This document shows, piece after piece, positions 9,932 through 41,350 of a stretch of DNA of 64,000 nt. Origin of the DNA: an uncultured delta proteobacterium (GTDB taxonomy: Bacteria; Myxococcota_A; Polyangia; Polyangiales; B10-G4); assembly GCA_963727445.1 (NCBI GenBank), contig CAVSGI010000006.1:576001-640000 (forward strand), written 5' to 3'. The notes under the pieces are model-generated. The model made no database searches, was not told the origin of the DNA, and was given only the letters and a program-made list of their open reading frames with translations. The position numbers and the translations under genes were made by a program. How positions within the stretch are numbered: the stretch's first letter is position 1; every line of letters begins with the position of its first letter.

Positions 9932-12900
9932 TCGCGCGCTGGCTCGGACGCCACCGACGGTCCGTAGCCTTCGTCTTCGTGTTGCTGGTGGCGGCCGGCG
10001 CCGCCAGCACCTTCTCGCTGCCAGTCGCGCTCTTTCCCCACGTCGACTTTCCCCGCATCGTCGTCTCCGTCGACGCAGGTGACCGACCTGCCGACCGGAT
10101 GGCCATCGAGGTGACGCGGCCAGTGGAAGAGGCGCTGCGCAGCGTGCCCGGTGTGCGTCGGGTGCGGTCACAGACCTCGCGCGGGAGCGCCGAGATCTCC
10201 CTGTCTTTCGACTGGGGGCGCGACATGGTGTCGTCGCTCCTCCTCACCGAGTCCGCGATCACGCGGATCGCGCCGACGCTGCCGAGCGGAACCAGCTTCG
10301 ACGTTCGCCGGATGGATCCCACCGTCTTTCCGGTCATCGCCTACAGCCTCACGTCGGCCAGGCTCTCTCCGACCGAGCTGTACGACATCGCCAAGTACCG
10401 GCTCGCCCCGGCGATCGCGACCATCGAAGGGGTAGGGCATACGACGGTGCTCGGCGGGCGGCAGGAGGAGTATCGCATCACGGTCGATCCCGAGAGGCTC
10501 GCGACCTACGGCCTCACGCTGCAGGACGTCGTGAACGTGGTGGGTGCGAGCAACGTGATCACGGCGGTGGGGCGGATCGAGGACCTGCACAAGCTCTACC
10601 TGGTGATCGCCGAGTCGAACGCCGTGGAGCTGGAGAAGTTGGGGACCATCGTTCTCAAGAGTGGGGAGGATGGGGCGGTGCTGGTGGAGGACGTCGCCAC
10701 CCTGAGCGACGTTGCGGCGCCGAGTTGGACCCGGGTGGCGGCCGACGGACGAGACGCGGTGCTGCTGCAGATCTATCAACAGCCCACTGGCAACACCGTG
10801 GCCGTCGCCCAGGCCGTTCGCTCGCTGATTCGCACCGAGCGCCCGAACCTCCCGCCGTCGCTCGAGATACACGCTTGGTACGACCAGAGTGAGCTGATCC
10901 AGGCGTCGGCGGCTTCGGTTCGCGACGCGGTCATCGTGGGAGTGGCGCTCGCGTGCCTGGTGCTGCTGGTCTTTCTCCGCAGCTTCAGAGTCGCGCTGGT
11001 CGCGCTGATCGTCGTCCCCGGTGTCCTGGCCGTCGCCGCGCTCCTGCTCGAGGTCCTGGGCATGAGCTTCAACATCATGACCCTCGGCGGAATGGCGGCG
11101 GCGGTGGGGCTGATCATCGACGACGCGATCGTGATGATCGAGCACATCCAGGTGCGCCATGCCGCCGCCTCCGGGGCGCTCGCGGCGGGTGAGGAGCTCA
11201 CCCGTCCCCTGGTCGTGTCCTCCACGGTCACGGTGGTCGTCTTCGCCCCCCTCGCGTTCCTCAGCGGGATCACGGGTGCGTTCTTCAAAGCGCTCTCACT
11301 GACCATGGCCTCGAGCCTCATCATCTCCTTCTTCGTCGCATGGCTCTTCGTGCCCATCGTGACCGAACGCCTGGCGTTCACCGGGGAGCACCGCGGGGAG
11401 GATGCGAGCCCGGGCTTGGTGATGCGCACATACGACCGGCTTCTGTCCGCTGTGCTCCGTCGCCCGTGGGTGGTCATTGTCGCGCTGGTGCCGCTCCTCG
11501 GCGCCGGCTGGTTGAGCTATCGCAACCTCGGTTCGGGCTTCATGCCGTCGATGGACGAAGGCGGCTTCATCATCGATTATCGCGCGGCTCCCGGGACCTC
11601 GCTGACCGACACGGACGCGCTCTGTCGCCGCCTCGAAGGCATCCTCGCGGAGATCCCGGAGGTCGATAGCTACTCCCGACGGACCGGCGTTCAGCTCGGT
11701 GGTGGGTTGACGGAAGCCAACGAGGGAGACTTCTTCGTTCGTCTGAAGAACGAGCGCTCGCGCGGCGTCGAGGCGGTGATGGACGACGTGCGCGGGCACG
11801 TGGAAAGAGAGCTCCCCGGGCTCGAGATCGAGCTGGCCCAGTTGATGGAGGATCTGATCGGCGACCTCACCGCAGTGCCGCAGCCCATCGAGATCGAGAT
11901 CTTCGCGGACGACCCCGAGGCGCTCTCGGCGACGGCGAACACAATCGCGGAGAAGATCGCGTCCGTGCCGGGGGTGGTCGACATCAACCCCGGCGTCGTT
12001 CTCGCGGGGGACGCCCTTCACGTGGACGTCGATCCGGTCCGCGCAGCCCTGCAGGGCATGGATCCGGCGAGCATCGCTGCGGCCGTGCGCGATCAGATCG
12101 AAGGGACCATCGCCTCGAACGTCCAACACGACCCCAAGATGATCGGGATCCGGGTCTGGGTCCCCGAACGGCTGCGCGAGACCACCCGCAGCGTCGCCTC
12201 TCTCAGGATCCGCGCGCCCGATGGCCACGTGTTCCCGGTGGGGCGGGTCGCCGAGATTCGCCGGGTGTCAGGCGAGCCGCAGATCTCTCGCGACGACCTG
12301 CGCCGCATGGTCGCGGTGACCGCGCGCATCTCCGGGCGCGACATGGGCTCGGTGGTCGCCGACGTCCAGGAGGTGATCGCGGCGGACGGGGTGATCCCCT
12401 CGGGGATGAGCCATCGCCTGGGCGGCCTCTATGCGGAGCAGCAGAACGCCTTCGTCGGGCTCATCGCCGTCTTCGCCGCAGCCGTGGCGCTGGTGTTCTT
12501 CGTTCTTCTCTTCACCTACGAGAGCTTTCGCGTCGCGGCCAGCATGATGGTCACCACGCTCTTGTCCTTCTGCGCGGTGCTCGCCGGACTCGTCTCGACG
12601 GGGACCGCGCTCGACATCTCCTCGATGATGGGCATGACCATGGTCGTCGGTATCGTCACCGAGGTCTCGGTGTTCTACGTGTCGTCGGTGGCCAACCACG
12701 CCCACGAACAAGAGGCTCTTCGGCTTGCGGCCCTCGAGCGGTTCCGCCCCATCGCCATGACGACCCTCGCCGCGATCCTCGCGCTCATGCCCCTCGCGCT
12801 CGCGATCGGCGAGGGGGCGTCCATGGAGCAGCCCCTCGCCATCGCCGTGGTCTTTGGGCTCGTCGCGCAAATGCCTCTGGTTCTGCTGGTCCTGCCAGCG

Positions 12901-19655: not shown

Positions 19656-20525
19656 TCAGGGACGCAGGATGCGGCCCGGCGCGTCCATGGTCCCCAGCTC
19701 GTTGTGACAGGTGTTGCAGTCGCCGTCCATCTGCGGGGTGTGCATGGCCCGCTCGAGGCCGTCGCCGGTCACCACCTTCGCGGTGTAGGGCATCACCACC
19801 GGTCCATCGAAGGTGTAGAGGAAGAAGTTGCCGGAGTTGTTCACCGGGAGGCGGAACTCCGTCCCTTCGGCGTCGGTGATCAACACGTCCACCGGGCCGT
19901 TGCCGCCGAGCGTCCCCTCGCAGTCGTCGGGCTGGTGGGCGCTGTCGTAGACGGTGCCGCCGATGAGGAGCTGGGGCGCGCGCCGCATGGCGTGACATTC
20001 GATGCACGCGGTGCCCGGGTGCATGAAGGGAGACTCCCGGTCGCCCAGGGTCCAGTACATGTCGCTCGTGCACTGGTCGGGGGTGTCGTAGGGGTTGGGC
20101 ATCGCCGGGTACTCGGTGTCGCAGCCCGCGCCCGTGCCCCCGCTGGTGACCCAGGCTTCGAAGGCCGCGATCTCTGCCTCGGTGGGCTGGGTCATGGGGT
20201 GGGGGGGCATCGGGGCCGCGGTGTTCCGCATGCGGCCGAGGCTCGCCTCCGCCACCGTCTGGGCGGGGGCCGCCGGGTCGGGGGCCATCAGATCGGCGAG
20301 GGTCATCAGGGACATGGGCGCGCTGGCGATGGGGGGATCGCCATGGCAACCGATGCAATAGGTCGCCAAGAGGGAGCTGACCTCGCAGGGCATGTCCGAG
20401 GCCGTGCCCGTGGTGCCGCCTCCGTCGCCGCCTCCGTCGGGCGCACCCGCAGGCCCGTGGTCACGCCCACCGCCGCAGGCCGTCAACATCAAGAAAAGAA
20501 GAGAAAAAACGGAACGCGAAGCCAC
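19656..20525 (-). CDS. Triheme c-type cytochrome lipoprotein
   Basis: GAGGAGG RBS before GTG 20525; lipobox MLTAC; CIGCH, CIECH, CNTCH. Confidence 0.8.
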
Positions 20526-20637
20526 TGCCAAGACCTCCTCCAAGTCCCCCCGGGCGGGAGTTTGGCCTCCGGGGCGGGCCATGCAACCGGGATGGTCGAT
20601 CGGGCAACCAGATATCCACCTGCTAGGATTCGGCACC

Positions 20638-22594
20638 TTGACCCGAGGCCTCACCCCTCTTCGAAGGGCCCGTGGCCAGGGGGCCAGCGCCCAGCGCGCG
20701 CCGGCCTTCCTGCCCACCACCCGCGCCGACATGGATGCCCGCGGCTGGGACGCCCTCGACATCCTCATCCTCAGTGGGGACGCCTACGTCGATCACCCCG
20801 CCTTCGGCCCGGTCTTGATCGCCCGCTTCCTCGAAGCCCGCGGCTATCGGGTCGGCTTCATCGCCCAGCCCCGATGGGCCGACCCGGAGGACGTGCTGCG
20901 CATGGGGCGTCCGCGGCTCTTCGTCGGAGTGTCCGCCGGCAACCTCGACTCGATGCTGAACAAGCTCACCGCGCAGAAGAAGACGCGCTCCGAGGATCAA
21001 TACTCGCCGGCGGGGCGGACGAACGCGCGACCGAACCGGGCGACCATCGTCTACGCGAATCTCTTGCGCGGCGCGATGCCGGGGGTGCCCATCGTCCTCG
21101 GGGGGATCGAGGCGTCGCTCCGGCGCATCGCGCACTACGACTACTGGAGCGACAAGGTGCGGCGCGCGATCCTCCTCGACGCCAAGGCGGACCTCCTGGT
21201 CTTCGGCATGGGGGAGCGGCCGATCTGGGAAGTGGCGCGCCGGCTCGATGCGGGGGAGGCCATCGGCGACATCCGCGACGTCCGCGGGACGGCCTTCGTC
21301 CTGGGCAAGGGCGAGCACGAGCACCTCGAGGCGAGCCGCTTCGTCAAGGATGGCAAGACGGTCATCCTGCCGAGCTACGAAGAGGTCTCGGCCGACGCGC
21401 GCGCCTTCAGCGAGATGTCGCGCGCCTTCCAATACGAGACGAATCCGGGCAACGGCCGGCCGCTCCTTCAGCGCCACGGCGACCAGGCCGTCTACTTCAA
21501 TCCTCCGGCGCTACCGCTCGACCAGAGCGAAATGGACGAGCTCTACGATCTGCCCTTCGTGCGGCGCCCGCACCCGAGCTACGCCGACCGGATCCCCGCG
21601 TTCGAAACGGTGAAGGACTCGATCGTGACGATGCGCGGATGCTTCGGCGGTTGCAGCTTCTGCTCGATCACCGAGCACGAAGGGCGCGTGATTCAGTCGC
21701 GTTCGGCCGAGAGCGTGCTCAGAGAGGTGCGCGCGCTCCGGCGGATGGATGGGTTTTCGCGGCGTGATCAGTGACGTCGGTGGACCGACCGCGAACATGT
21801 ACGAGATGAAGTGCAAGAGCGAGGAGATCGAGCGCTCTTGCCGGCGCCTGTCGTGCGTTCATCCGGGCGTCTGCGACAATCTGGTCACCGATCACGCGCC
21901 GCTGGTCTCGCTCCTTCGCAAGGTGCGCGCAGAGGACGGGGTCAAGAAGGTCTTCGTCGCCAGCGGCGTGCGCTACGACCTCGCCGAGCGCTCGCCCGAG
22001 TTCGTCAAGGAGCTCGCCGAGCATCACACGGGCGGGCAGCTCTCGGTGGCCCCCGAGCACGTGGACGAGGGCGTGCTCGCCAAGATGAAGAAGCCGGGGG
22101 CCGAGAGCTACGAGCGCTTCGCCCACATGTTCGCCTGCGCGAGCGAAGAGGCCGGCAAGGATCAGCACCTGGTCCCCTACTACATCAGCGGTCACCCGGG
22201 CTCGACACTCGACTCGATGATCGCGCTTTCTCTCTACCTCAAGAAGCGCGGCATCCGGCCGCGTCAGGTTCAGGACTTCATCCCGACGCCGATGTCGATG
22301 GCCACGAGCATGTACGTGACCGGGATCGATCCCTTCACCCGCGAGCCGGTCTACACGGCCAAGACCATGAAGGACAAGCGCATGCAGAAGGCGCTTCTCC
22401 TGTACTGGGATCCCGCGCATCACGATCTCGCGCGCGAGGCCCTCGCGCTGGCGGGTCGCCGGGATCTGATCGGGAGCGGTCCGTCCCACTTGATCCCGCC
22501 CGCCCGGGGCAAGGGCTCGCTGTCGATTCACCAGCGGCGGGGCGGGCGCGCGGGGAGCGGGCGTTCACGCGGCCGGCGCAAGAAGAAGCGCTGA
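20638..22594 (+). CDS. ygiQ: YgiQ/UPF0313-family radical SAM protein, split by one extra base at 21754-21757
   Basis: [33 protein letters not shown]; the conserved [14 protein letters not shown] is restored by deleting one T from GGGTTTTCGC. Start uncertain (TTG 20638 or ATG 20581). Confidence 0.85.
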
Positions 22595-27112: not shown

Positions 27113-29209
27113 TCAGTTGGCAGCGCCGGGGCTCGGCGTGGCCTGCACGTAGGCTTCGGTGCCGAAGGGGTTGCCGAGACCGTCGTACTGGCGCTGGTTC
27201 GACTCGACCGAGCCGCTGCTGCCCTCGTTGATCTGCGGGTGGCCCGGCGTGAGCGCGCTGAGCAGCTCGGGGTCGTCGGCGTCCGCGGTGTCGTAGACGA
27301 GCGCGTCCAACAGGGTGGTCCCCGAGGGCGTGCCGACCGGCGTGCCGTTCGGGAAGTCCGCCGCGTTGCCGGTGTAGAGCGCCACGGCGTCCGCACCGTT
27401 CTGCAGGCTGTCCGCCGCCGACACGCGGCAGTTGACGCCCAGGGTGCAGCCCGACGCGGTGATCGCGTCGGGGTTGCCGATGAGGAAGAAGCCGCTGCTG
27501 TTCGTGACGTAACCATCGAGGTCGAAGGCCATGTACGACTGGTCGTTGGAGCCGTTGAAGAGGACCACGACCAGCCCGTCGAGGGAGGTCCCCCCGGCGC
27601 CGCCGTCGTAGAGCTCGATGAACTCGGCCATGTCCGTGCCTGGCTGATCGGCGTCCACCTCGTTGATCACGATGTCGCTTCCGACCGCGTCCCAGCACAT
27701 CGACATGGCGCAGCCGAAGCAGCTGGGTGCGGTGCCGGGGCAGTCGCTGCAGCTCGAGAGATCCGGCGCGAAGACGTCGGCCGGGCAGTCGACGGAGGAC
27801 CCGTCGCAGGTCTCCGCGGCGTCGCAGTCGATGGTGGCCGCGCGGCAGACGGTGCCCGAGGGCGAGAGCATGTCCGCGGGACAGGCCGCTGCGGCGCCGG
27901 TGCACATCTCCGCCGGGTCGCACAGGCCGGTGGAGGCGCGGCACTCGGTGGAGCTCGCGAGGAAGGAGTCGGCGGGACACGTCCCCCCGGATCCGGTGCA
28001 GGTCTCGGCTACGTCGCAGACGCCCGCCGATGGGCGACACTCGGTCCCGCCGGTCACGAAGGAGTCCGAGGGACAGGCGCTCGAGGAGCCATCACACGTC
28101 TCGGCGACGTCGCAGCCGCCCACCACGGCCCGACACTCGGTGCCCGAGGGCAGGACGTCGTCGCTGGGGCACGCCGCGCTCGCCCCGGTGCAGGTCTCTT
28201 CGGCGTCGCAGAGGTCCGCGGCCGCGCGGCAGACGGTGGTCGAAGGCTCGAGGGCGTCCGCGGGGCACATCGCGCTCGCCCCGGTGCACGTCTCCTCGGC
28301 ATCGCAGAGGTCGGTCGACGCGCGGCAGACAAGGGTCGAAGGGGCGAAGGCGTCGGCGGGGCACATGCCGCTCGTTCCGGTGCAGCTCTCCGGGACATCG
28401 CAGCCGCCGGCGGCCGCGGGACGACAGACCGTGGAGGACGGCGCGAAGGCGTCGGTCGGGCAGTCGGTGGTCGTCCCGTTGCAGAGCTCGTCGACGTCGC
28501 AAGCGCCGGAGGCGGCGCGGCAGACGGTGGAGGACGACGCGAGGCTGTCGCTGGGACAGGCGCTCGACGCCCCGTCGCATGTCTCCGCCACGTCGCAGGG
28601 GCCCGCGGCGGACCGACACTCGGTGCCCGCGGGCGAGAGCGCGTCCGCGGGACAGTCGGCAGAGGCGCCGGTGCACATCTCCGCGGCGTCGCAGGCACCT
28701 GCGGAGGCGCGGCATTCTGTCGAGCTCGGCATGAAGGAGTCGTCTGGACACGCCGCGCTCGTCCCATCGCAGCTCTCCGCGACGTCACACGCGCCCGCGG
28801 CCGAGCGACACTCGGTGTCCGCGGGGCTCACCTCGTCGTCGGGGCACGCCGTCGTGGCTCCGTCACAGGTCTCGGGGACGTCGCATGTTCCCGCCGCCGC
28901 GCGGCAGACCGTGTCGGCTGCGGCCGGGCCATCACAGGTCGCGCTGCAGCATCCGTCGATGCCCGGGTCGCACGTCTCACCGGGATCGAGCGTGCCGTTG
29001 CCGCAGGGCGTGGCGCTGTCGGGGGTCGCGTCGGCGCTTCCATCCGTCGCGGCGTCGGGGACGTCGGAGTCGGTGCTGCTGTCCGTCCCCCCTTCGCCAA
29101 TGCCGGTGTCGGTGGGGGTTCCGGTGTCCCTCACGCGGCTGTCGTCGCCGCAGCCGGCGAACAGGAGAGAGGAGAGAAGAATTCCGACGAGCGTGCGGGC
29201 CATGACCAT
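27113..29209 (-). CDS. Lipoprotein with tandem disintegrin-like repeats and C-terminal lamin-tail-like domain
   Basis: Lipobox LFAGC; CGNG..DPGETCD; 12 repeats CR.....CD..E.C.G....CP.D; IVINEVDAD..EFIELY..TPSPGAAN. Confidence 0.85.
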   Translation of the reverse strand: MVMARTLVGILLSSLLFAGCGDDSRVRDTGTPTDTGIGEGGTDSSTDSDVPDAATDGSADATPDSATPCGNGTLDPGETCDPGIDGCCSATCDGPAAADTVCRAAAGTCDVPETCDGATTACPDDEVSPADTECRSAAGACDVAESCDGTSAACPDDSFMPSSTECRASAGACDAAEMCTGASADCPADALSPAGTECRSAAGPCDVAETCDGASSACPSDSLASSSTVCRAASGACDVDELCNGTTTDCPTDAFAPSSTVCRPAAAGGCDVPESCTGTSGMCPADAFAPSTLVCRASTDLCDAEETCTGASAMCPADALEPSTTVCRAAADLCDAEETCTGASAACPSDDVLPSGTECRAVVGGCDVAETCDGSSSACPSDSFVTGGTECRPSAGVCDVAETCTGSGGTCPADSFLASSTECRASTGLCDPAEMCTGAAAACPADMLSPSGTVCRAATIDCDAAETCDGSSVDCPADVFAPDLSSCSDCPGTAPSCFGCAMSMCWDAVGSDIVINEVDADQPGTDMAEFIELYDGGAGGTSLDGLVVVLFNGSNDQSYMAFDLDGYVTNSSGFFLIGNPDAITASGCTLGVNCRVSAADSLQNGADAVALYTGNAADFPNGTPVGTPSGTTLLDALVYDTADADDPELLSALTPGHPQINEGSSGSVESNQRQYDGLGNPFGTEAYVQATPSPGAAN
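27775..28925 (-). repeat. 12 degenerate ~96-bp (32-aa) intragenic tandem repeats
   Basis: Counted from the translation; four invariant Cys per unit; one unit has a one-residue insertion. Confidence 0.85.
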
Positions 29210-31855: not shown

Positions 31856-32593
31856 TCAGCTCGACTCGAGCAGGAGCCGCTCGATGCCGTCGGCGGCGTA
31901 GCGGACGCGCCGGACGGTGTAAACCGAGACGTAGACGGCCAGCGCGCCGAGCGCACACGCACCCCAGAGAAGCCAGTGGAAGAAGTCGCTCATCTCGACC
32001 GCCGAGACCTCGAGCACCAGGGTCGAGACCGCCGGGGTGAGCCCGAGCAGGCCGTAGGCCACGGCGCGCCGCACCTGGTGTCGGGTCGCGCGGGCCGCGG
32101 ACGCATGCACCCGCTCGCCGTAGGGCGCGGCGCCGGACGCTTCGCGATACCCGGCATCTTCTGCGGGAGCGCGCTTTTCGGCGAGGGCGGCGAGGATGAC
32201 GGTGCAGGCCGGCGACTTCGTGTTGAGCTCGACGGTATGCGGCTCGTACTTCTTCAGGTGGGGCTCGAGGTCCCGGAGGACGATGTCGACATACCTCGGC
32301 CAGTCGCGTAGCGCGTAGTGGGCGATCACCGGTGCCGCGAGGCCTGCCGCGTAGAGGGCGCCGTAGAGCCAGTCGATGGGCGGCACGTCGCGGGCGCAGA
32401 GGTAGCTGATGTACAGGCCAGCGAGGCCGATGGGGACCGACCAGCCGGCGACGAGGAGGCCGCCGAGGCGCGTGTAGCCCTGCGGTCGGTTGGCCGTCTT
32501 GCCGGTCCAGCTCCCGGTCACGATGGACACGCCGAGGGAGAGGAACATGAGGCCGGCTGCGAGAGCGACCGCTGCGAGAAGGAGCAGCCCCAT
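31856..32593 (-). CDS. Hypothetical multi-pass membrane protein
   Basis: About five hydrophobic segments; starts 5 bp after the radical SAM gene stop. Confidence 0.65.
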   Translation of the reverse strand: MGLLLLAAVALAAGLMFLSLGVSIVTGSWTGKTANRPQGYTRLGGLLVAGWSVPIGLAGLYISYLCARDVPPIDWLYGALYAAGLAAPVIAHYALRDWPRYVDIVLRDLEPHLKKYEPHTVELNTKSPACTVILAALAEKRAPAEDAGYREASGAAPYGERVHASAARATRHQVRRAVAYGLLGLTPAVSTLVLEVSAVEMSDFFHWLLWGACALGALAVYVSVYTVRRVRYAADGIERLLLESS

Positions 32594-32598
32594 GACCG

Positions 32599-34374
32599 TC
32601 AGCTCCGTAGGAGTGGAAGCGCTCGCCCGGTCGGCTCGGGGTCGCCCATGCCGGAGATGATCGCGCGCGTGATGGGGTGGATGAGCACGATGATGCGGTC
32701 GAGGGCGCCGAGCGCCTGCGCGCTGGCCGTGGGCTCGCTCTTCTCGTAGGAATAAGCGACGCCGGGCAGGATGCGCAACGCGCGGGTGTCCGGCTCGGCG
32801 GGAACGGCGCGGAGGACGACCTCTCCCGTGGTGTGAGAGAGCACGATCCTCAGTCCCTGGCGCGCGTCACCGTCGATGACGGTGACCTCCGCCAACGTGA
32901 AGACGCCGAGCGAGTCGACGCGCCGCGCGAGGGCGTCGTGCATGTGCTTGTGTGCGACGCCGGCGTCGGTCGCGGGCGGGTCCGTGGACGAAAAGGAGAT
33001 CGGTTCCTCCCGTATACCCGCCGCGGCGCGATGTGCGTCGCGCTGGCCGGGCCGCGGGAACTTCCAGGTGCCTCCGTGGGGGATGTCCCCGCTCTCGTCG
33101 TGAGCGAAGTCGTCGAGCCACCGGCAGGTGTCCTCGAGCTCCTCTCGAGACCAGCCGCGGCAGGAGATGAGCTGAAGCGTGAAGGGGTCGTAGACCATCG
33201 CGTCGCGGGCCGGTGCGTTCTTCATGAACGCGCTCGGAAGCACCAGACAGTGGAAGACCCGGATCGAGGCGGGGAGCTTCAGGACGCGCTCCAGGGTGCG
33301 CTTGAAGCTGTCGGGGTCATCGCCGGGGAGGCCGAGGATGATCTCGACCGTCGTGTCCGGGACGATCGACGCCACTTCGGCCACGACTCGGTCGAAGCGC
33401 TCCTCGTCGAAGGGCCGGTCGACGTGTTTCAGCACCGACGCGTCATACGATTGGAGGCCGATGCCGGCGTAGGCAGCGCGCGCGGACTCGAGGAAGGCGA
33501 GGTGCCCGTCTTTCATGTGCGAGGGATAGACCTCGCAGCGCAGGCCTCCGAGCTTTGCCAGGGCGCCGACCTCGGCCTCCGCCCGAGACAGGTTGGCGAA
33601 GGCGCGGCTGCTCAGGTTCAGGGCCGGGTCCACCAACCAGGTGCCCTTGACGTCCAACTTGGAGAGCGCCTCGAGCTCGCGCACCAGATGTTGGTGGCCG
33701 AAGACCCGCGACCGTACGCCGGTGTCGCCCCAGGCGCAGTAGGCGCACGACAACGGGCAGCCGCGAAAGGACTCGAACTGCGCCGTGACGCCGTCGGGCA
33801 TCAAGCCGAGTTGGTAGGGCGACGGGTGGACGTCGGGGGGACCATAGTCGCGGAGCGGCGTCTCAATCCACGCGTCACCGTCGTGGACCGCCAGCCCCGG
33901 GATCTTCGCGAGGGCCCCGCGGTCGAGCGCGGGGGAGAGCAGGATCTCCTGAATCGCCGCCTCGCCGTCCCCGATACAGATGGCGTCGACCACCTCTGCT
34001 CCGTCGGCGTGCTGCGGTAGCTCGAACATCTCCGGACGGCTCGAGGGGCCGCCGAAGATGATCGTCCGCTCGGGGCGCGCGCGCTTCGCTCGGCGGCAGG
34101 TTTCGAGGAGCGTGGGGAAGGACCACACGTACGCGCTGGTGCCGATCACGTCCGGGTCGAAGGCCTCGATCCGCTCCAAGAGCGCGTCCACGTCGAGGGT
34201 GCGCATCTCGATGAGCGTGTGCTCGGTGATCTCGCCGAGGATCTCGTGGCCGACGATGGCGGCCTGGATCCGTCGTACCGCGTAGTTGAAGGGTTGGTTG
34301 TCCACGCTCTCGGTGAGCTGCCACGGATCCAGGCAGAGCAGCGCCACACGACGTGGCTTCACGGAGGGGGGCAT
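32599..34374 (-). CDS. Cobalamin-binding (class B-like) radical SAM protein, copy 1
   Basis: B12-binding-like DVIGTSAYVWS..IIFGGP..GDGE; ESFRGCPLSCAYC; IGLQS; EIILGLPGD. Confidence 0.88.
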   Translation of the reverse strand: MPPSVKPRRVALLCLDPWQLTESVDNQPFNYAVRRIQAAIVGHEILGEITEHTLIEMRTLDVDALLERIEAFDPDVIGTSAYVWSFPTLLETCRRAKRARPERTIIFGGPSSRPEMFELPQHADGAEVVDAICIGDGEAAIQEILLSPALDRGALAKIPGLAVHDGDAWIETPLRDYGPPDVHPSPYQLGLMPDGVTAQFESFRGCPLSCAYCAWGDTGVRSRVFGHQHLVRELEALSKLDVKGTWLVDPALNLSSRAFANLSRAEAEVGALAKLGGLRCEVYPSHMKDGHLAFLESARAAYAGIGLQSYDASVLKHVDRPFDEERFDRVVAEVASIVPDTTVEIILGLPGDDPDSFKRTLERVLKLPASIRVFHCLVLPSAFMKNAPARDAMVYDPFTLQLISCRGWSREELEDTCRWLDDFAHDESGDIPHGGTWKFPRPGQRDAHRAAAGIREEPISFSSTDPPATDAGVAHKHMHDALARRVDSLGVFTLAEVTVIDGDARQGLRIVLSHTTGEVVLRAVPAEPDTRALRILPGVAYSYEKSEPTASAQALGALDRIIVLIHPITRAIISGMGDPEPTGRALPLLRS

Positions 34375-34384
34375 CGTCCCCACT

Positions 34385-36751
34385 CTACGATGCGGGTGCG
34401 TCGTCGGCCAACCGCTGGGCCCAGCTCGCGTACCGGTCCCGGACCCGCGCATGGGACGGCTCGACCCGCACGCCGCCGATGACGATGAGCGTGGGCTCGT
34501 CCAGCACCGAGAGGTCCTCGCGGGGATCGCGCGGATAGACGACGAGGTCCGCCGGCGCACCTTCGGTGATCGCGGGCTCGCGGAAGTAGGCGCGCGCGCC
34601 GAAGGAGCCGGCGGCGAGGGCGGCCATACGCGAGAGCCCCAGCTCGTGGAGCTGCCGAATCTCGTCGGCGACGGTCACCTCGGGGAAGAGATCGGTCCCG
34701 GCGAGGATCAGCACGCCGCGCGACTCGGCGTGGGGAAGGAGCTCGGCCAGGCGCACCATCGTCTGCTCGATCCACGTCGCGCGTTCGGGCTGCCGGTCGC
34801 GTCGCGCGATCCGCCACATCGGGTGCGCGATCGCGGTGAGAGGAGCCCATGCCGTGCCGCGCTGCGCCATCTCCGCCAACAGCGCTTCGTCGAGCCCCCA
34901 CCCGTGCTCGAGGCTGTCCACGCCGGCGCGCACGGCGACCTCGGCCCCCGCGTGCGTGAAGCAGTGGGCGGCGACGCGTCCCCCGAGCGAGTGGACCACG
35001 CGCACCGCCTCCGAGAGCAGGGGCAGCGGATAGCTGACCGCGTCGTCGCGGGTGAACCCGGAGTTGATGCGGCCGCGGTAGTCGCTGGTGAAGTCCGCGA
35101 AGACCTTGACCCAGCGCCCGCCGCGCTCGATGCGCTCCGCAGCGGCGCGCACCAGGTCCTCTGGCTCGGTGGCGGTGAAGGGCCACTCGTCGTTGCGCAG
35201 GATCATCGTGCCGCATGCGTGAACGCGCGGCAGGCCGGGCACGTCCAGGAGCTGACTGGGGGCGTCGTCGATCGAGCCCATGTCGCGGATCGCGGTGACG
35301 CCCGTCACCGCGTAGTCGGTGCGCCGCTCGTCGAGCCAGGCCTCTGTGCTCACCGGCGCGTCGCGATCGTGGGGATAGCTGATGTGTCCGTGGCATTCGA
35401 AGAGCCCCGACGTCACGAAGGCCGAGCCCCGGGTCAGGAGCTCCGCATCGGCGGGTCCCGCCGAGTGAATGCATCCGTCCACCACGAAGAGGTCTCGCGT
35501 GCGTCCGTCCGGCAGCGTGGTGCCGTGGACTCTCGCGCCGCGCTCGTCGCTCGACGGCGCGATCCGCGGCGCGTCCGCGGGGTAGACCAGGGGCCACCGC
35601 GTGCTCGCGGCGGGGTCGCCGGGGTGGGCGTCGGGGGCCGAGTTTTCGAGGAGCATCCGCATCTTCGGCGTGGTCGGCGCCTTGATGCGCGCGCCGTCGG
35701 CGAAGCAGTGCAGGGCGAGCGCTGCGCGCGGCGAGTCCCCTTCGTTCGGAAAGGCGCCGTGGATCATCTTGCCGTCGTGGAAGCTCACGTCGCCGGCGAA
35801 GACCGGGGGGAGCGTGTCCACGACGAGGCCGGCCTCCGCGATGATGGTGGCGAACTCGGCCTCGCTCACGTCGTTGATGTCCTCCACGTGGGCGATGCCG
35901 AGTCGCTGGGCCCCGCGAGCGAAGCGGAGCAGGCCGTCTCGTGGCCCGACGTCACCGAGCGGGATCCAGCAGGTGATCGTCGCCTCCGCGTCGAAGGGGA
36001 AGACAGCCTCGTCCTGGTGCCAGGGGGTGATGCCGGCGCCCGCCTCTTTGATGAGCCAGTCCTCGCAGAAGAGGCGAAGCGACGAGACGCCCATCAGCTG
36101 CGCGGCCATCCCGAGGACGCGCCTCGACCACGCGAAGGTGCGGAGCTCCGGATCCGAGAGCCCGAGGTCGACGATCTGGGTGAAGGATCGCGCGTAGGCG
36201 TCGGGGCGCGCGTTGGGCGGCGGGAGGTCTCTCGGCCATGCGCGCTCGAGGGCGAACCACAGATGCGGCGCCGCGGCCAGGACCACGTCGCGGCCCAGCG
36301 CGCGGCGAACCAGCACGTGCCCGTCGCGCCGGTAGGCGTCGATGATCGCAGGGTCGAGGTCGACCTCGCTCGCGAGATGGGCGCGTTGGTAGGGCGTTGG
36401 AAACCCAGCGTCGCGGGGAGGCGGAGCCAGTGTGGAGGCGGATGGATCGAAGCGCTCCGCCGACAGGAGCGCGGCGAGGGCGTCGATCGCGGCGTCGAGG
36501 GCTCTGCGGCGTGGCGGCGAGAGCTCGCCGTCGTAGCGGTAACTGAACGCGAGGGAACGGACTTCGCGGTAGCACCGGCCCCGCCCGGACGCCGGGCGGA
36601 CCTCCAAGACCAAGCTGGGCTCGTGCGCGAAAGCAATCCACACGGCGCCACGCTCCTGCCACATGCGGCTTGTCTCCAGCGTGCGGGCGGTGGCCTCGGC
36701 GACCGCATCCGCCATCCGCGAGCGCAGGTTCGAAGACCGTTCGCTCGACAT
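34385..36751 (-). CDS. Fusion: unassigned N-terminal module + PhyH-type Fe(II)/2-oxoglutarate dioxygenase + amidohydrolase
   Basis: YRRDGHVLVR, TPWHQD, GDVSFH, IHGA; then ECHGH, GVTAIRDMG, VAAHC, SLEHG, AGTD, GAPADLVV. ATG overlaps the upstream TGA (TGATG). Confidence 0.85.
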   Translation of the reverse strand: MSSERSSNLRSRMADAVAEATARTLETSRMWQERGAVWIAFAHEPSLVLEVRPASGRGRCYREVRSLAFSYRYDGELSPPRRRALDAAIDALAALLSAERFDPSASTLAPPPRDAGFPTPYQRAHLASEVDLDPAIIDAYRRDGHVLVRRALGRDVVLAAAPHLWFALERAWPRDLPPPNARPDAYARSFTQIVDLGLSDPELRTFAWSRRVLGMAAQLMGVSSLRLFCEDWLIKEAGAGITPWHQDEAVFPFDAEATITCWIPLGDVGPRDGLLRFARGAQRLGIAHVEDINDVSEAEFATIIAEAGLVVDTLPPVFAGDVSFHDGKMIHGAFPNEGDSPRAALALHCFADGARIKAPTTPKMRMLLENSAPDAHPGDPAASTRWPLVYPADAPRIAPSSDERGARVHGTTLPDGRTRDLFVVDGCIHSAGPADAELLTRGSAFVTSGLFECHGHISYPHDRDAPVSTEAWLDERRTDYAVTGVTAIRDMGSIDDAPSQLLDVPGLPRVHACGTMILRNDEWPFTATEPEDLVRAAAERIERGGRWVKVFADFTSDYRGRINSGFTRDDAVSYPLPLLSEAVRVVHSLGGRVAAHCFTHAGAEVAVRAGVDSLEHGWGLDEALLAEMAQRGTAWAPLTAIAHPMWRIARRDRQPERATWIEQTMVRLAELLPHAESRGVLILAGTDLFPEVTVADEIRQLHELGLSRMAALAAGSFGARAYFREPAITEGAPADLVVYPRDPREDLSVLDEPTLIVIGGVRVEPSHARVRDRYASWAQRLADDAPAS

Positions 36752-37516
36752 CAGGACCCCGGCAAGAGCGACGCGAGGACCTCGTCGGCCTCGGCGGCGG
36801 CGCGGAAGGATTCGTCGACCCAGGAGGGCCGTGGCGCCCATGCGGCCGTGAGGTAGAAGGCGATGAAGATCCGGAGCCCCGCGGAGCGCTTTTCCGTCGC
36901 CGCGTGCCAGGTCGCCTGGTCGAGGAGGACGACGGTTCCCGCGGTGCAGAAAAGCTCGCGCTGCCCCGCCCAGTCGGTGGCCTTGGGATCGAAAGGCGGC
37001 TCGGTGGGGTCGGTGAGCGCCCGCGGCCGAATGCGCAGCGCGCCGTCCTCCGGCGATACGTCCTCCAGGTAGAGGAGCGCAGTGATCCGCTCCGGGCGCT
37101 CGTAACGCGGGAAGATCCCCTCCTTGCGATGACGGATGTTGTCGACGCCGCCCATGTGCGCGTGCCAATCGAAGAAGGGGCGTCGCCCCGACACGACGAC
37201 CGCGCTCGCGTATTCGAGGTACATGCCGGCGCCGAGCAACTCCCGCGTGACGCCGAGCACTTCGGGCGCGAAGATGTGTGCGCCGAGCTCGGGGAAGTGC
37301 GATCCCAGCTTGTGAAACACCAGGCCCACCGGCGAGATCTCGACGTCGGTCGCGGGCGCCTTCGGGGGCCGGGCGTAGGTCTCGGGGGACCCGAGGGCCT
37401 CGTAGCGCGCCACGATCGGCGCGCGGATGCGCGCCACCTCGTCCGCGGAGACCGAGATCCTCGAACACCGCGTATCCCTCGTCGAGGAGCGCGCGTGCCC
37501 GGGCCGACTCAGACAC
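36751..37516 (-). CDS. PhyH-type dioxygenase, split by one extra base at ~37452
   Basis: GTG 37516 overlaps the upstream stop; DEGYAVFEDL + VSADEVARIR join after removing one G; WHAH, LLYLEDV..EDGAL, AGTVVLLD..TWHAA. Confidence 0.78.
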
Positions 37517-39143
37517 CGTCGCCTCCGAGGGGCGCCACGACCGGTCCCACGTCCTGGTGGAGCGCGGCGATGAACGAGCGCAGGCGCGACGCGCCTCCAG
37601 CCTCGAGCTCGCCACGGTGCGAGTAGGCGATGCCATCGTGCTCCGCGAAGAGCGCTTGCCCGGGCGTGGCCACGCGGGCTTCGAGCACCACCCCTCCTTC
37701 GCCGGCGTCGAGGTCGAGGATCAAACGCCCGCCGTCGGCGCGCGCGTCTCTGAGGCGGTAGCCCATCTGGGTGGAGGCTACCGCGCGGCGGAGGCGCGCG
37801 AGCGCGAGGTCACCGAGGGAGCGCGAGCGTTCGGCCGCGCCGTCGGTGCGAAAGTCGACCCAGTCGCGCCCGAAGTTCGGGCGGTGCATCTGGCCTGCAA
37901 TCTCGCGGACGTAGGCCCATTCGTTCTCGAGGTCCTCGCGGCTCCATCCGAGGCAGGACTCGATGGCGAAAGTCTCCGGATCGAAGACCAGATCGAACTC
38001 CTCCGCGCGTTCGAGGAGGGCGTCGGGCAGCGCCAGGCAGTAGAAGACGCGCACCGTCGCGGGGATCGAGAGGGCCCGTTCGAAGGTGCGGCGAAACGAG
38101 GCGGGATCGTCGCCGGGGAGGCCGAGGATGAGCTCGAGGTCGATCGGATATCGGCCCGAGAGCTCGTCGAGCACGCGAGCGAAGCGCGCGGCGTCGAAGG
38201 GCCGCCCGAGACCCTTCAGCACCGCTCCGTCGAAGCTCTGGATCCCCACCGCGAGCTCCACCCGGCCAAAGGTGTCGAAGAGATCGAGGTGCTCGTCCTT
38301 CAGGTAGGTGGGGTAGACGTGGCCCAGGACCTGGCGCGTCCCGAGCGCGCGCACCTCGCGCTCGGCAGCGGCGAAGTTGCGGAATGCGCGCGGGCTCAGG
38401 TTGAAGGCCGCGTCGAGCACGTGCACCCGCTCGACGCCCGCCGCGTCGAAGCCGCGCAGGTGCTCGGCGAGGTATTCGGCGGAGTACACGCGGTCGGCAC
38501 GCGCGTCGCCCCATTGGCAGAAAGCGCAGCTGATGGGGCAACCGCGGAAGGTCTCGAGGAAACCGTGCTCGGCCCGCGGGATGGTGCCGAGCTGGTAGGG
38601 CGACGCGTAGTCGTCGAGCGCCGGCCGCGCGGCCTCGCCGCTCGCGCGGAAACCCAGGGCGTGTGGGACGTGGAGTCCGGCGACTCGCTCGCGCCAGTCG
38701 TCGTTCCCGTGCTCTCTGACGATGGCGCGGATGACCTCTTCACCTTCACCGGTGGCGATGGCGTCGAAGAAGCGCGCGTAGGGAGCGTAGGGCGAGAGCG
38801 CCAGCACCGAAGGACGCGCCGCCGGCCCACCCATCACGACGCGGACCTCTGGGTCGTGCTTCTTCACCAGCTCGGCGACGCGACAGAAGAGCCCGATGGA
38901 CCAGATGTAGGCCGAGGCCGCGACGACGCTGGGTCCGAAGGCGCGGATCGCCTCGAAGTACGCCTCGGGGTCGTCCTCGCGGAGGTCGATGGCGCAAGTC
39001 TCCACGTGCCCGAGGTCGGGCGCGCTTCGAACCGAGGCCTCGAGCTTCCGGGCTGCGTAGGAGAAGGGGAGCGAGCCTCCCGACACGTCGCCCCAGACGA
39101 GGTCGCGGGCCAGGAACGCGACGCGGGGCTCTGAGCTCACCAT
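37509..39143 (-). CDS. Cobalamin-binding (class B-like) radical SAM protein, copy 2
   Basis: SAYIWS..VVMGGP..GEGE; ETFRGCPISCAFC; VGIQS; ELILGLPGD; collinear with copy 1. Confidence 0.88.
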   Translation of the reverse strand: MVSSEPRVAFLARDLVWGDVSGGSLPFSYAARKLEASVRSAPDLGHVETCAIDLREDDPEAYFEAIRAFGPSVVAASAYIWSIGLFCRVAELVKKHDPEVRVVMGGPAARPSVLALSPYAPYARFFDAIATGEGEEVIRAIVREHGNDDWRERVAGLHVPHALGFRASGEAARPALDDYASPYQLGTIPRAEHGFLETFRGCPISCAFCQWGDARADRVYSAEYLAEHLRGFDAAGVERVHVLDAAFNLSPRAFRNFAAAEREVRALGTRQVLGHVYPTYLKDEHLDLFDTFGRVELAVGIQSFDGAVLKGLGRPFDAARFARVLDELSGRYPIDLELILGLPGDDPASFRRTFERALSIPATVRVFYCLALPDALLERAEEFDLVFDPETFAIESCLGWSREDLENEWAYVREIAGQMHRPNFGRDWVDFRTDGAAERSRSLGDLALARLRRAVASTQMGYRLRDARADGGRLILDLDAGEGGVVLEARVATPGQALFAEHDGIAYSHRGELEAGGASRLRSFIAALHQDVGPVVAPLGGDGV

Positions 39144-39159
39144 CGAAGCATGACCGCGC

Positions 39160-41350
39160 TCAGCCGCCGATGCCACCGCCGAGATCCAGGTCGGGTAGGG
39201 GGAGGGCGTCGGTTTGAAGGCTGGTTTCGTTGTCCTGGTAGTGCATGCTCTCGGCGGTGAGCGACGTGAGGTCGAAGCCGGGCCCCGAGATGCAAGCGCC
39301 GATGGTGTTGTCCTCGATGTACCCGTCGGAGACCGTCAGAGTCGTGTCGCTCTCTCCGCCGCTGTCGAAGACGTAGAATCCCGCAGGTGGCGTTGTTGCC
39401 GCTCAGGAAACGCGAAAAGGTTGCGGCTGCGTCGGCGACGACCACCCCATGGCCCCGCGCCCCGGCGCCCGTTCTCGCGACGTTCGAGACGGTGAAGTCG
39501 TGGGCCTCGAGGGTGGCTTTCGTGACGACCAGCCCGTACTCGCGAAGGTCGTCCATCTGCACCCGCTCGAGCTCCGTTCGCGAGCTCGCCTGCGCCTGAA
39601 CGGCTCGGCCACCGACGCCATCGGGGGTGCCCGTGACGTGACGCACCACCACGTCGCTCAGCGACATCAGCGAGCCGCTGTGTTGTGCCAGCACTCCCAC
39701 GTCCACCAGATCCTCGAGCAGAGCGCGCGACAATCGAAGGGACGAGCCGAAGACGATGTTGGCGGCCCGCCCGCCGAAGCCGCCGGCCCCGGGGTGGTTG
39801 TTTCGAATCACGACGTCCGTGAGGTCGATCTGCGCGTTGTTCTGGCCGTTGATGGCCGTGGCGTAGCCGCCGTCGAAGCGCCCCCGGCTCACGGTGACCG
39901 AGGCGCTGTCGGCGTGAAGGTGGACGCCAATCTTGCCGCCCTCGTTGCTCGTCGCTTCGATGGAGAAGTCGCTCAGCTCCACCCTCGCTCCCGTCAACAA
40001 CACGAGCCCGCCGTCCTGGACGCGGGCGACCGCGACCCGCGATCCGGTGAAGGTGCTCTCCGATTCGACTACGAATCCACGGCCGGTCATGGGCACGGAA
40101 GAGGGAGTGCTGTCGCGCACCACCAGGTCGGTGACGTCCAAAGAGCTGGCATTTACGACCGATACCGAGAAGACGTCGACGCCCGACAGCACCACGCGCT
40201 CCGCCTCGAGCGTGCCGCCGACATCGACCAGGATCCCGTATCCCCTGGGGTTGCCCCTCGGCGCGGCGACGTCGCGGATCACCACGTCCGAGAGGCTCGC
40301 GGATGCCTCGAGGTCGGCGACGCCCGCTTCGGCGCAGCGCTCGACGAGGACTCGCGAGAGCGTGAGTGTCGCCCCCATGTCGACGTTGAACGCCCGCCCT
40401 CCTTCTCCGCTCGCCGGCACCGTGTCCAAGACCGCGGCGTCGCTCATGGACACCGCGACCCCTTCGCCCCGAATGATGACGCCGCCCTTGGTGCTGTTGC
40501 GGATGACGAGGCGCTGCGCGTCGATGGTGCCCCCGAGGAGAAGAAAGGCGAGACCTTGGCCGAGCTGGGGTGTCACGTTTTCGATCAGAACGTCGGCGAC
40601 CTCGAGATGCGCGTCGCCGGCGCTCACGGCGAAGGCCTCTCGTAGCACTCCGTCGACGACGACGCCCTCTACGCGCAGGTGTCCAGTGCCGAGTTGAACA
40701 CCGCGCTGAGGCGCGCCGCGGATCGTCACGTTGCGGAGCACCGCTGGATCACCGTCGGCGGTGACCGTCACCACCTGCGCCACGGGCGCGTCGACACCGG
40801 TGAGTACGGTTCGGGCCGCGCAGGCGCCGACGACCTCGACGCCAGGACGCAGCGGGAGCGAGCCCGCGTAGGTCCCGGGCCCCAGCGCCACCACCGTCCC
40901 CGAGCCGAGAGAGCTCCAGTTGACCTGCGACAGCGATGTGTAGGGCGCGCCCCGGCTCCCGTCGCCATTTGCTGCTGCGCTTTCGAGCACGTAGATGGTT
41001 CCGGAGACTTCGGCGAATTCGCCCGAGGGGCACACGTCGCCCACGGGCCGGCAGCCCGCCTCACCGACGAAGTGCGCTTCACCGTCGGCGCAATCCGCCG
41101 GGCCGCCTTCTGGGTAGGGGTCGCATTCGACGATCCCGTCGACTGTCACCTCGCGCCATCCCGACGGACACGGCGTCAGCACCGGCGCGGCAACCGGCGG
41201 CTCGCCCTCCGCGAGCCACGGGATCTGTGGTGGCGTGACGCGCTCCTCCACCATCGAGGCGTCGCCGCCGGCATCTGCGCTCGAGTCCGGACCGGAGCAC
41301 CCGGCCACGAGGCTGAAGATCACTGCGACGGCGGCGCGCGGAGACACCAC
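39160..41350 (-). CDS. Parallel beta-helix lipoprotein, split by one extra base at ~39381
   Basis: Lipobox LVAGC; GDGSRGAPY, VVGACA; beta-helix repeats; the shifted frame gives DGYIEDNTIGAC..GFDL..LQTDALPLP, matching the paralog at 43320. Confidence 0.78.

Follow-up and report, generated by a model that had tools for sequence, protein, structure and literature searches.

Why do three enzymes of one operon, built on unrelated catalytic folds, carry the same short segment, and what does this segment do? The question is raised by a 64,000-nucleotide (nt) stretch of about 70% GC from an uncultured delta proteobacterium of the order Polyangiales (contig CAVSGI010000006.1, positions 576,001 to 640,000; hereafter the window). 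An initial annotation, made from the letters alone, pointed to a module shared by the C-termini of two B12-binding radical S-adenosylmethionine (SAM) enzymes, rSAM1 and rSAM2, and the N-terminus of a PhyH-amidohydrolase protein, here called the fusion (Table 1). Our analysis confirmed their homology: each of the three segments is a copy of a single ~100-residue domain. Its proposed role as a non-catalytic module that holds the substrate is, in our judgement, about as apt to hold as to fail.

The strings quoted for all three segments were found in the minus-strand translations where the initial annotation had placed them. The tail of rSAM1 contains GEVVLRAVPAEPDTRALRILPGVAYSYEK followed by DRIIVL (first nt of GEVVLRAV, 32826; of DRIIVL, 32700), the fusion begins with MSSERSS, followed by SLVLEVRPASGRGRCYREVRSLAFSYRYDGEL and AAIDAL, and the rSAM2 tail contains GGVVLEARVATPGQALFAEHDGIAYSHRGEL followed by SFIAAL. 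Pairwise BLASTP placed the segments in a common register, with E values of 0.002, 0.019 and 0.003 as single comparisons. Together with orthologous copies from three related genomes, the window copies form one block of ~105 columns (alignment A2, 7 rows). Far stronger similarity was obtained with hidden Markov models (HMMs) built separately from 29 radical SAM-attached and 14 oxygenase-attached copies, all of them library hits and none from the window, and run against the 81,323 six-frame open reading frames (ORFs) of the source genome. The radical SAM-only model recovered the N-terminal copy of the fusion at E 7.9e-16 (best non-family ORF, 0.067), and the oxygenase-only model recovered the copies of rSAM2 (1.4e-14) and rSAM1 (4.3e-8; next ORF, 0.23). 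An hhalign comparison of 12 rSAM2-type with 5 fusion-type copies gave a probability of 98.1% (E 8.3e-14) over 74 columns. The source genome has exactly three copies, the fourth-best profile match reaching only E 0.048. Copy 1 is the most divergent of them and is preceded by a ~40-residue low-complexity linker. One module common to three enzymes, as first proposed, is therefore upheld by the cross-class profiles (E 1e-8 to 1e-16) and by profile-profile similarity; its length had been underestimated at ~80 amino acids (aa) and is ~95-105 residues, because an N-terminal helix belongs to the domain. A chance or compositional resemblance of high-GC coding tails, without any common domain, might be suspected from the pairwise BLASTP values and a genome of ~70% GC, yet it is refuted by the cross-class profiles (background 0.07 or weaker), the hhalign result and a matching second fold model with an identical predicted order of elements, as well as by 89 credible carriers, and its likelihood is negligible.

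Database searches did not connect the domain with any described family. When the three full proteins were compared with Pfam and NCBIfam, the best matching stretches stopped before the module. Scanning the seven A2 copies against Pfam-A with hmmscan, at E up to 10, gave scattered single matches at E 0.03 or weaker, a sequence profile search of the PDB with the module gave a best E of 0.47, and an Atlas feature search returned unnamed clusters with a best value of 0.79, which is under the level of a lead. Among Pfam, NCBIfam and PDB sequences there was thus no known domain of unrelated function, consistent with the module having been called unassigned. A full-text literature search, as far as the abstracts of the papers allow, yielded no description of the domain. 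We consider three things to be new: the family itself, the order of elements predicted for its fold and the range of its partners. Already known, from the recognition elements (RREs) of ribosomally synthesized peptides with post-translational modifications (RiPPs), is the logic of one accessory domain common to many tailoring enzymes.

To find carriers of the domain, hmmsearch was run with alignment A2 over 1.84 billion representative proteins. It gave 93 matches within E 0.001, 17 of them at 1e-10 or better, and review left the 89 credible carriers. A word-indexed protein search with A2, which contains no conserved run of 7-10 columns, recovered 5 proteins only, including the window's own three. 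The remaining four (P0041, P0043, P0045 and P0071) were rejected as false positives and left out of all tallies: they are long and have no or only a marginal match on re-scanning (5.9e-4 for P0071), and the Pfam results of P0043, P0045 and P0071 were scattered zero-stretch noise only. A Pfam partner (E 1e-4 or better) was assigned in 47 of the 89 carriers. Radical SAM partners account for 31 of these (27 with B12-binding and Radical_SAM, one with B12-binding only and three Radical_SAM-only fragments); P0097, counted here, also has PhyH. The others are PhyH (6), PhyH with Amidohydro_1 (3), IPNS-like 2OG-FeII_Oxy (4), a WelO5-like protein (1) and Lactamase_B_2 of the metallo-beta-lactamase fold (2), the PhyH, PhyH-amidohydrolase, 2OG-FeII_Oxy and WelO5 proteins making up 14 oxygenase carriers. 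Among the 42 carriers without a Pfam partner, 13 match the radical SAM cores of the window and three match its small PhyH protein, in each case outside the module; two (P0083 and P0089) have an N-terminal copy on an enzyme of no known family, and most of the others, of 200 residues or fewer, may be fragments. Elsewhere the copy is N-terminal in P0030, P0031, P0050, P0054, P0064 and P0073, whereas P0039, P0059 and P0097 have an internal one; the other carriers bear it at the C-terminus. P0015 has two tandem copies (residues 487-595 and 608-714).

Genome scans extended this range to non-B12 radical SAM enzymes (loci L059, L060 and L065) and to a nitrogenase-type Oxidored_nitro protein (L067, 9756-13780) with a NifH-like protein and a second Oxidored_nitro protein as neighbours; in L062 (1558-4224), NifH, a copy and Oxidored_nitro lie within one open frame. 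The partners therefore belong to at least seven Pfam-defined families, and the copy may be N-terminal, C-terminal or between two catalytic domains, a wider distribution than the occurrence at either terminus of unrelated folds described initially.

Of 401 genomes sampled from the phylum, 32 (26 of 255 genera) contain a match at E 0.001 or better. All named carriers belong to Myxococcota, among them Enhygromyxa salina (WP_146659827.1), Paraliomyxa miuraensis SMH-27-4 and Chondromyces apiculatus DSM 436; carriers from metagenome-assembled genomes are labelled Polyangiaceae, Sandaracinaceae, Nannocystaceae and Enhygromyxa. Beyond Myxococcota, the profile was applied through the global library search, whose entries carry no taxonomic labels. 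A copy is present in 21 of 22 myxobacterial rSAM2-like loci, the exception being cut by a contig end, and absent from all four weak non-myxobacterial rSAM2-like matches.

The phylogeny of the domain was estimated from 49 copies with IQ-TREE; the deeper order of this tree is unsure, as its bootstrap had not settled completely and the domain is short. The three window copies fall in three separate parts of this tree. Copies of the rSAM2 type join C-terminal PhyH copies (support 99/97), the copy of the fusion joins one N-terminal PhyH copy and one radical SAM copy (98/86), and the well-supported branches require the radical SAM label to change at least three times. The approximately unbiased test rejected one common clade of radical SAM copies (p 0.0155). 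As judged from these sequences, the domain has passed between enzyme classes more than once, in agreement with the mobile module of the initial annotation.

Residue conservation gives a first indication of function. Across 46 copies the conserved positions, W24, L49, Y/F61, A68, F/Y69, Y71, L85 and I89, are hydrophobic or aromatic, and none of the copies' polar residues is invariant. The median cysteine count is 0, the median net charge is +1, and the copies are joined to their enzymes by linkers. Hydrophobic or aromatic conservation, the lack of an invariant polar residue and of cysteines, and the linkers therefore point to a binding or structural module, not a catalyst. An iron-sulfur or other metal-binding domain was rejected on the cysteine count and the lack of any conserved His or Cys.

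Two copies were modelled with AlphaFold2. Copy 3, modelled from the seven rows of A2, reached a mean predicted local distance difference test (pLDDT) score of 88.7 and a predicted template modelling (pTM) score of 0.80, with elements H7-19, E24-32, E35-42, E45-53, E62-64, E67-72 and H79-101 (H, helix; E, strand). Copy 2, modelled from 11 oxygenase-attached copies only (alignment A5), reached a pLDDT of 92.1 and a pTM of 0.85, with H2-20, E27-33, E36-41, E44-53, E62-64, E67-72 and H79-98. In both models a helix is followed by three long strands and, after a loop, by two short strands and a long helix; the two copies are thus predicted to share one order of elements, not to adopt different folds, in line with the single module first proposed. 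Foldseek comparison of both models with the PDB gave no match at E 0.001 or better. Heading the lists of both models, at noise level and as a lead only, are BPI, PLUNC, Mdm12, CETP, Der f 7 and JHBP, lipid binders with the element order of the domain. The TULIP/BPI-like order comprises a short helix, a five-stranded antiparallel sheet and a long helix, and both models show it. Other neighbours at noise level include the N-domain of Aha1, the C-domain of RseB/MucB and KA1/AMPK C-terminal domains.

The surroundings of the carriers were compared in 26 loci, namely the window (W), six loci from relatives and 20 places from the scan spanning genera. The domain was found at E below 0.001 in 25 of them. 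Two to four strong copies stand side by side in four loci (W, L015, L048 and L046/47) and a weak second match occurs in two (L013 and L050), while 19 of the 25 carrier loci have a single copy within ~10 kb. L048 repeats the set of the window (PhyH, fusion, rSAM1 orthologue and rSAM2-like gene) and adds an rSAM-PhyH fusion, a further B12-binding radical SAM gene, a radical SAM gene of the HxsC4 class (583 bits against a cut-off of 500), a gene of the fatty-acid-desaturase family and a farnesyl diphosphate (FPP)-synthase-like gene. Its rSAM1 orthologue (10474-12295, minus strand; G195:C5) is frame-broken into ORFs of 407 and 296 aa, and the domain is retained in the C-terminal piece. In five loci a B12-binding radical SAM carrier lies near a pair of genes, one for a ~280-aa protein without a family, the other for an HxsC-like radical SAM protein. 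An Atlas feature search placed the ~280-aa protein near clusters bearing PF11468, the aromatic (ABBA) prenyltransferase family (0.90, where 11% of the cluster members carry it, and 0.85, where 41% do), which is a lead only. The source genome has such a pair on contig C20 (~828.8-831.0 kb), not in the window; the C20 region (~764-842 kb) contains at least seven HxsC-like radical SAM matches and an HxsC4-class orthologue (58% identity). In family f38, rSAM/domain/PhyH fusions are encoded between an argininosuccinate lyase gene and a transfer RNA (tRNA) synthetase gene, with no biosynthetic neighbours.

What, then, could one small domain do for so many enzymes? The evenly balanced reading named at the outset is that it is a non-catalytic substrate-holding module. 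Moving between enzyme families in Myxococcota, it would hold a common part of the substrate and so let tailoring enzymes act one after another on one molecule. We infer that its ligand is the substrate and not a protein; a small-molecule handle, hydrophobic or of another kind, appears more likely than a leader peptide because of the evidence, given below, that counts against an RRE-like role. Weak leads towards a hydrophobic ligand are the FPP-synthase-like and desaturase-family genes of L048 and the PF11468-like neighbour. Substrate holding is favoured because the domain tracks a narrow set of tailoring enzymes that would act in sequence, because covalent two-enzyme fusions retain it (single polypeptides of the order B12-rSAM/domain/PhyH and PhyH/domain/PhyH: P0097, P0039, L055 and L064), because most clusters need only one copy, and because in solved B12-radical SAM enzymes it is the non-conserved C-terminal domain that touches the handle of the substrate. 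According to one report, the C-terminal domains of solved B12-radical SAM enzymes vary in architecture and share a function in interacting with the substrate, and that of TokK touches the pantetheine tail (10.1101/2021.07.10.451909). The solved structures nearest to rSAM2 are indeed TokK (7kdx; E 1.2e-23, residues 70-383) and CysS, but their alignments span residues 70-385 of rSAM2 only, leaving the tail domain uncovered in both. Like the C-terminal domains of TokK, TsrM and OxsB, the domain comes after the radical SAM barrel when it is part of a class B enzyme. It differs from them in being found also on oxygenases, hydrolase-fold and nitrogenase-like enzymes.

Several points weigh against substrate holding. 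The analysis showed no substrate, ligand or pocket. Hydrophobic and aromatic conservation could reflect no more than the core of the fold, and the tandem copies of P0015 fit a dimerising domain as well. The analogy with TokK, which is not among the listed fold matches, is one of position in the protein and not of homology. There are no prenyl or lipid neighbours of the window operon within the 64 kb, and such context comes from the clusters of relatives.

A more specific form of substrate holding, which we advance tentatively and regard as rather improbable, is that the domain is a miniature BPI/TULIP-like carrier. It would grip a prenyl or lipid tail of the intermediate and hand it between B12-radical SAM methylases, iron- and 2-oxoglutarate-dependent (Fe/2OG) hydroxylases, hydrolases and nitrogenase-like reductases. 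The SCP2 lipid-carrier domain is a small substrate-presenting domain appended to different peroxisomal lipid enzymes with hydrophobic substrates in common, and SCP2-bound substrate is reportedly used by phytanoyl-CoA hydroxylase, the enzyme that founded the PhyH family. The likeness to SCP2 is one of logic only, as no sequence or fold match was seen. If the carrier proposal is true, the domain would be the first substrate-presenting domain common to the B12-radical SAM, Fe/2OG, hydrolase and nitrogenase-like classes, and a marker for unrecognised myxobacterial lipid or meroterpenoid tailoring pathways.

The domain also offers a handle on uncharacterised myxobacterial pathways, as a marker that can be searched with alignments A2, A3 and A5, and it fills an annotation gap of ~100 residues per carrier presently without a family. 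In assigning the chemistry of B12-radical SAM enzymes, the most difficult part is usually to find the substrate. If the domain binds substrate, it could serve in isolated form to capture the substrate of these enzymes. Since carriers occur in cultured strains (P. miuraensis, C. apiculatus and E. salina), its role can be tested at the bench.

Instead of a small molecule, the domain might bind its own copies or one scaffold protein, and so gather the enzymes into a complex or into dimers. Such docking or oligomerisation is a possible, though doubtful, explanation. It accounts for the adjacent carrier genes in the four multicopy loci, the tandem copies of P0015 and the hydrophobic or aromatic character of the conserved positions, and the weak fold neighbours include the protein-binding Aha1 N-domain and the KA1/AMPK and RseB/MucB C-domains. 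Every fold match is at noise level, however, and a partner copy within ~10 kb is lacking in the 19 single-copy loci. Moreover, the domain is kept in covalent rSAM/domain/PhyH fusions, encoded among housekeeping genes, in which docking between enzymes would be superfluous. These points leave simple homodimerisation untouched.

RREs adopt a winged-helix fold with a three-stranded sheet followed by three helices. The initial annotation had drawn an analogy with them. On an RRE-like reading, the domain would bind the leader of a ribosomal precursor peptide and bring it to each tailoring enzyme. The two systems are alike in comprising a small non-catalytic domain on several unrelated tailoring enzymes, at either terminus and sometimes standing alone, which is thought to bring one substrate to many enzymes. 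A single small domain recurs on several enzyme families per cluster, and B12-radical SAM enzymes, Fe/2OG oxygenases and SPASM- or HxsC-like radical SAM proteins are the usual enzymes of peptide tailoring; the clusters of relatives are rich in HxsC-like genes, one of which passes the HxsC4 cut-off as described above. The domain is nevertheless unlike RREs in sequence, with no PqqD (PF05402) match at E up to 10, and in its predicted order of helix, five strands and helix, and some of its carriers, such as those of f38, are solitary among housekeeping genes. No RRE-bearing chain occurs among the top 50 listed fold matches of either model, which is not an exclusion. No conserved small ORF was found beside the carriers in the 26 loci or in the window operon, although poorly conserved short genes can escape such a comparison. 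The analogy is weakened by the missing PqqD match, the different predicted topology, the failure to find a precursor gene and the housekeeping context of some carriers, and we consider an RRE-like function unlikely.

Individual precursor candidates were rejected as well. A 28-aa ORF upstream of rSAM2 (39160-39246) is the shifted-frame tail of a beta-helix gene, with high G+C content at third codon positions (GC3). Small-ORF clusters 9, 14, 15 and 16 lie antisense to radical SAM genes and are shadow ORFs, and cluster 23 arises when a small coiled-coil ORF, putatively SlyX, is read out of frame. A six-frame pattern search of the window and of loci compared with it for a substrate with His-x-Ser repeats gave three two-repeat chance matches, in off-frames only, and no His-x-Ser repeat ORF.

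Finally, the domain could be a regulatory, stabilising or localising appendage without substrate contact, serving in allosteric sensing or as a membrane tether. A non-catalytic domain on flexible linkers would be consistent with this, the weak KA1-type resemblance would suit membrane tethering, and a possible membrane protein is encoded past rSAM1. Membrane-binding KA1 domains are basic, however, in contrast to the near-neutral charge of the copies, and a general stabiliser would not be expected to keep to a small range of tailoring enzymes within a single phylum. We hold such a role to be quite improbable.

The tight operon that raised the question is summarized in Table 1.

Table 1. Genes of the window operon and copies of the domain (window coordinates).
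Feature	Position	Strand	Description
rSAM2	37509-39143	minus	544 aa, ATG at 39143; first gene of the operon; B12-binding radical SAM enzyme
Small PhyH	36751-37437	minus	228-aa PhyH-family dioxygenase (PhyH E 3.9e-7); without a domain copy
Fusion	34385-36751	minus	788 aa; domain copy, then PhyH (177-344), then Amidohydro_1 (483-760) (Pfam)
rSAM1	32599-34374	minus	591 aa, ATG at 34374; second B12-binding radical SAM enzyme
245-aa ORF	31856-32593	minus	245 aa, 5 nt past rSAM1; no Pfam family; membrane-like by eye
Domain copy 1	32602-32952	minus	C-terminal ~115 residues of rSAM1; own-genome profile E 2.7e-29
Domain copy 2	36425-36751	minus	N-terminal ~109 residues of the fusion; own-genome profile E 5.7e-33
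Domain copy 3	37512-37829	minus	C-terminal ~106 residues of rSAM2; own-genome profile E 1.4e-35

The initial annotation pointed to three enzymes of the operon. These carriers of the domain are there, together with a fourth enzyme, the small PhyH protein. In rSAM2, Pfam places B12-binding at residues 53-141 and Radical_SAM at 197-356 (motif CPISCAFC), and in rSAM1 at residues 54-144 and 202-363, respectively (motif CPLSCAYC); the two proteins are 39% identical over residues 9-424. Both combine PF02310, PF04055 and a CxxxCxxC motif, as class B radical SAM enzymes do, and neither reached an NCBIfam equivalog cut-off. Orthologues of the fusion with the same layout were found in L015 (60% identity), L048, L053, P0031, P0054 and P0073. 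The 245-aa ORF is possibly the last gene of the operon, as judged from spacing alone, and no counterpart of it was found in loci L013-L015. No sigma-70-like promoter was detected inside the operon, and the single terminator-like site is on the plus strand.

The stop codon of the small PhyH gene overlaps the start of the fusion (TGATG), as seen in the sequence. Relatives of the small PhyH protein (P0018, P0019 and P0028) match it outside the domain and bear a C-terminal copy; in the window, this protein is without a copy and the next gene, the fusion, which overlaps it by one base, begins with one. The domain may have switched genes through a shift of the stop at this junction. The tree, however, does not place the fusion copy together with the C-terminal PhyH copies.

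Three further observations concern other genes of the window. Upstream of the operon, an ORF for a 737-aa beta-helix lipoprotein (39137-41350, minus strand) shows a frame change near 39400: its Arg-rich tail has low GC3, and another frame has high GC3 up to a stop at 39160. This pattern points to a frameshift in the gene or in the assembly. A 698-aa predicted lipoprotein (27113-29209, minus strand) has 12 Disintegrin stretches (E 1.3e-73) and a Lamin Tail Domain, a repeat architecture that is unusual in bacteria. Lastly, an ORF with Radical_SAM_N and the start of Radical_SAM (20362-21774, plus strand) is overlapped by an ORF with DUF3362 (21692-22594, plus strand); the two look like a single gene broken by a frame change, presumably of the YgiQ-type architecture, which combines Radical_SAM_N and DUF3362.

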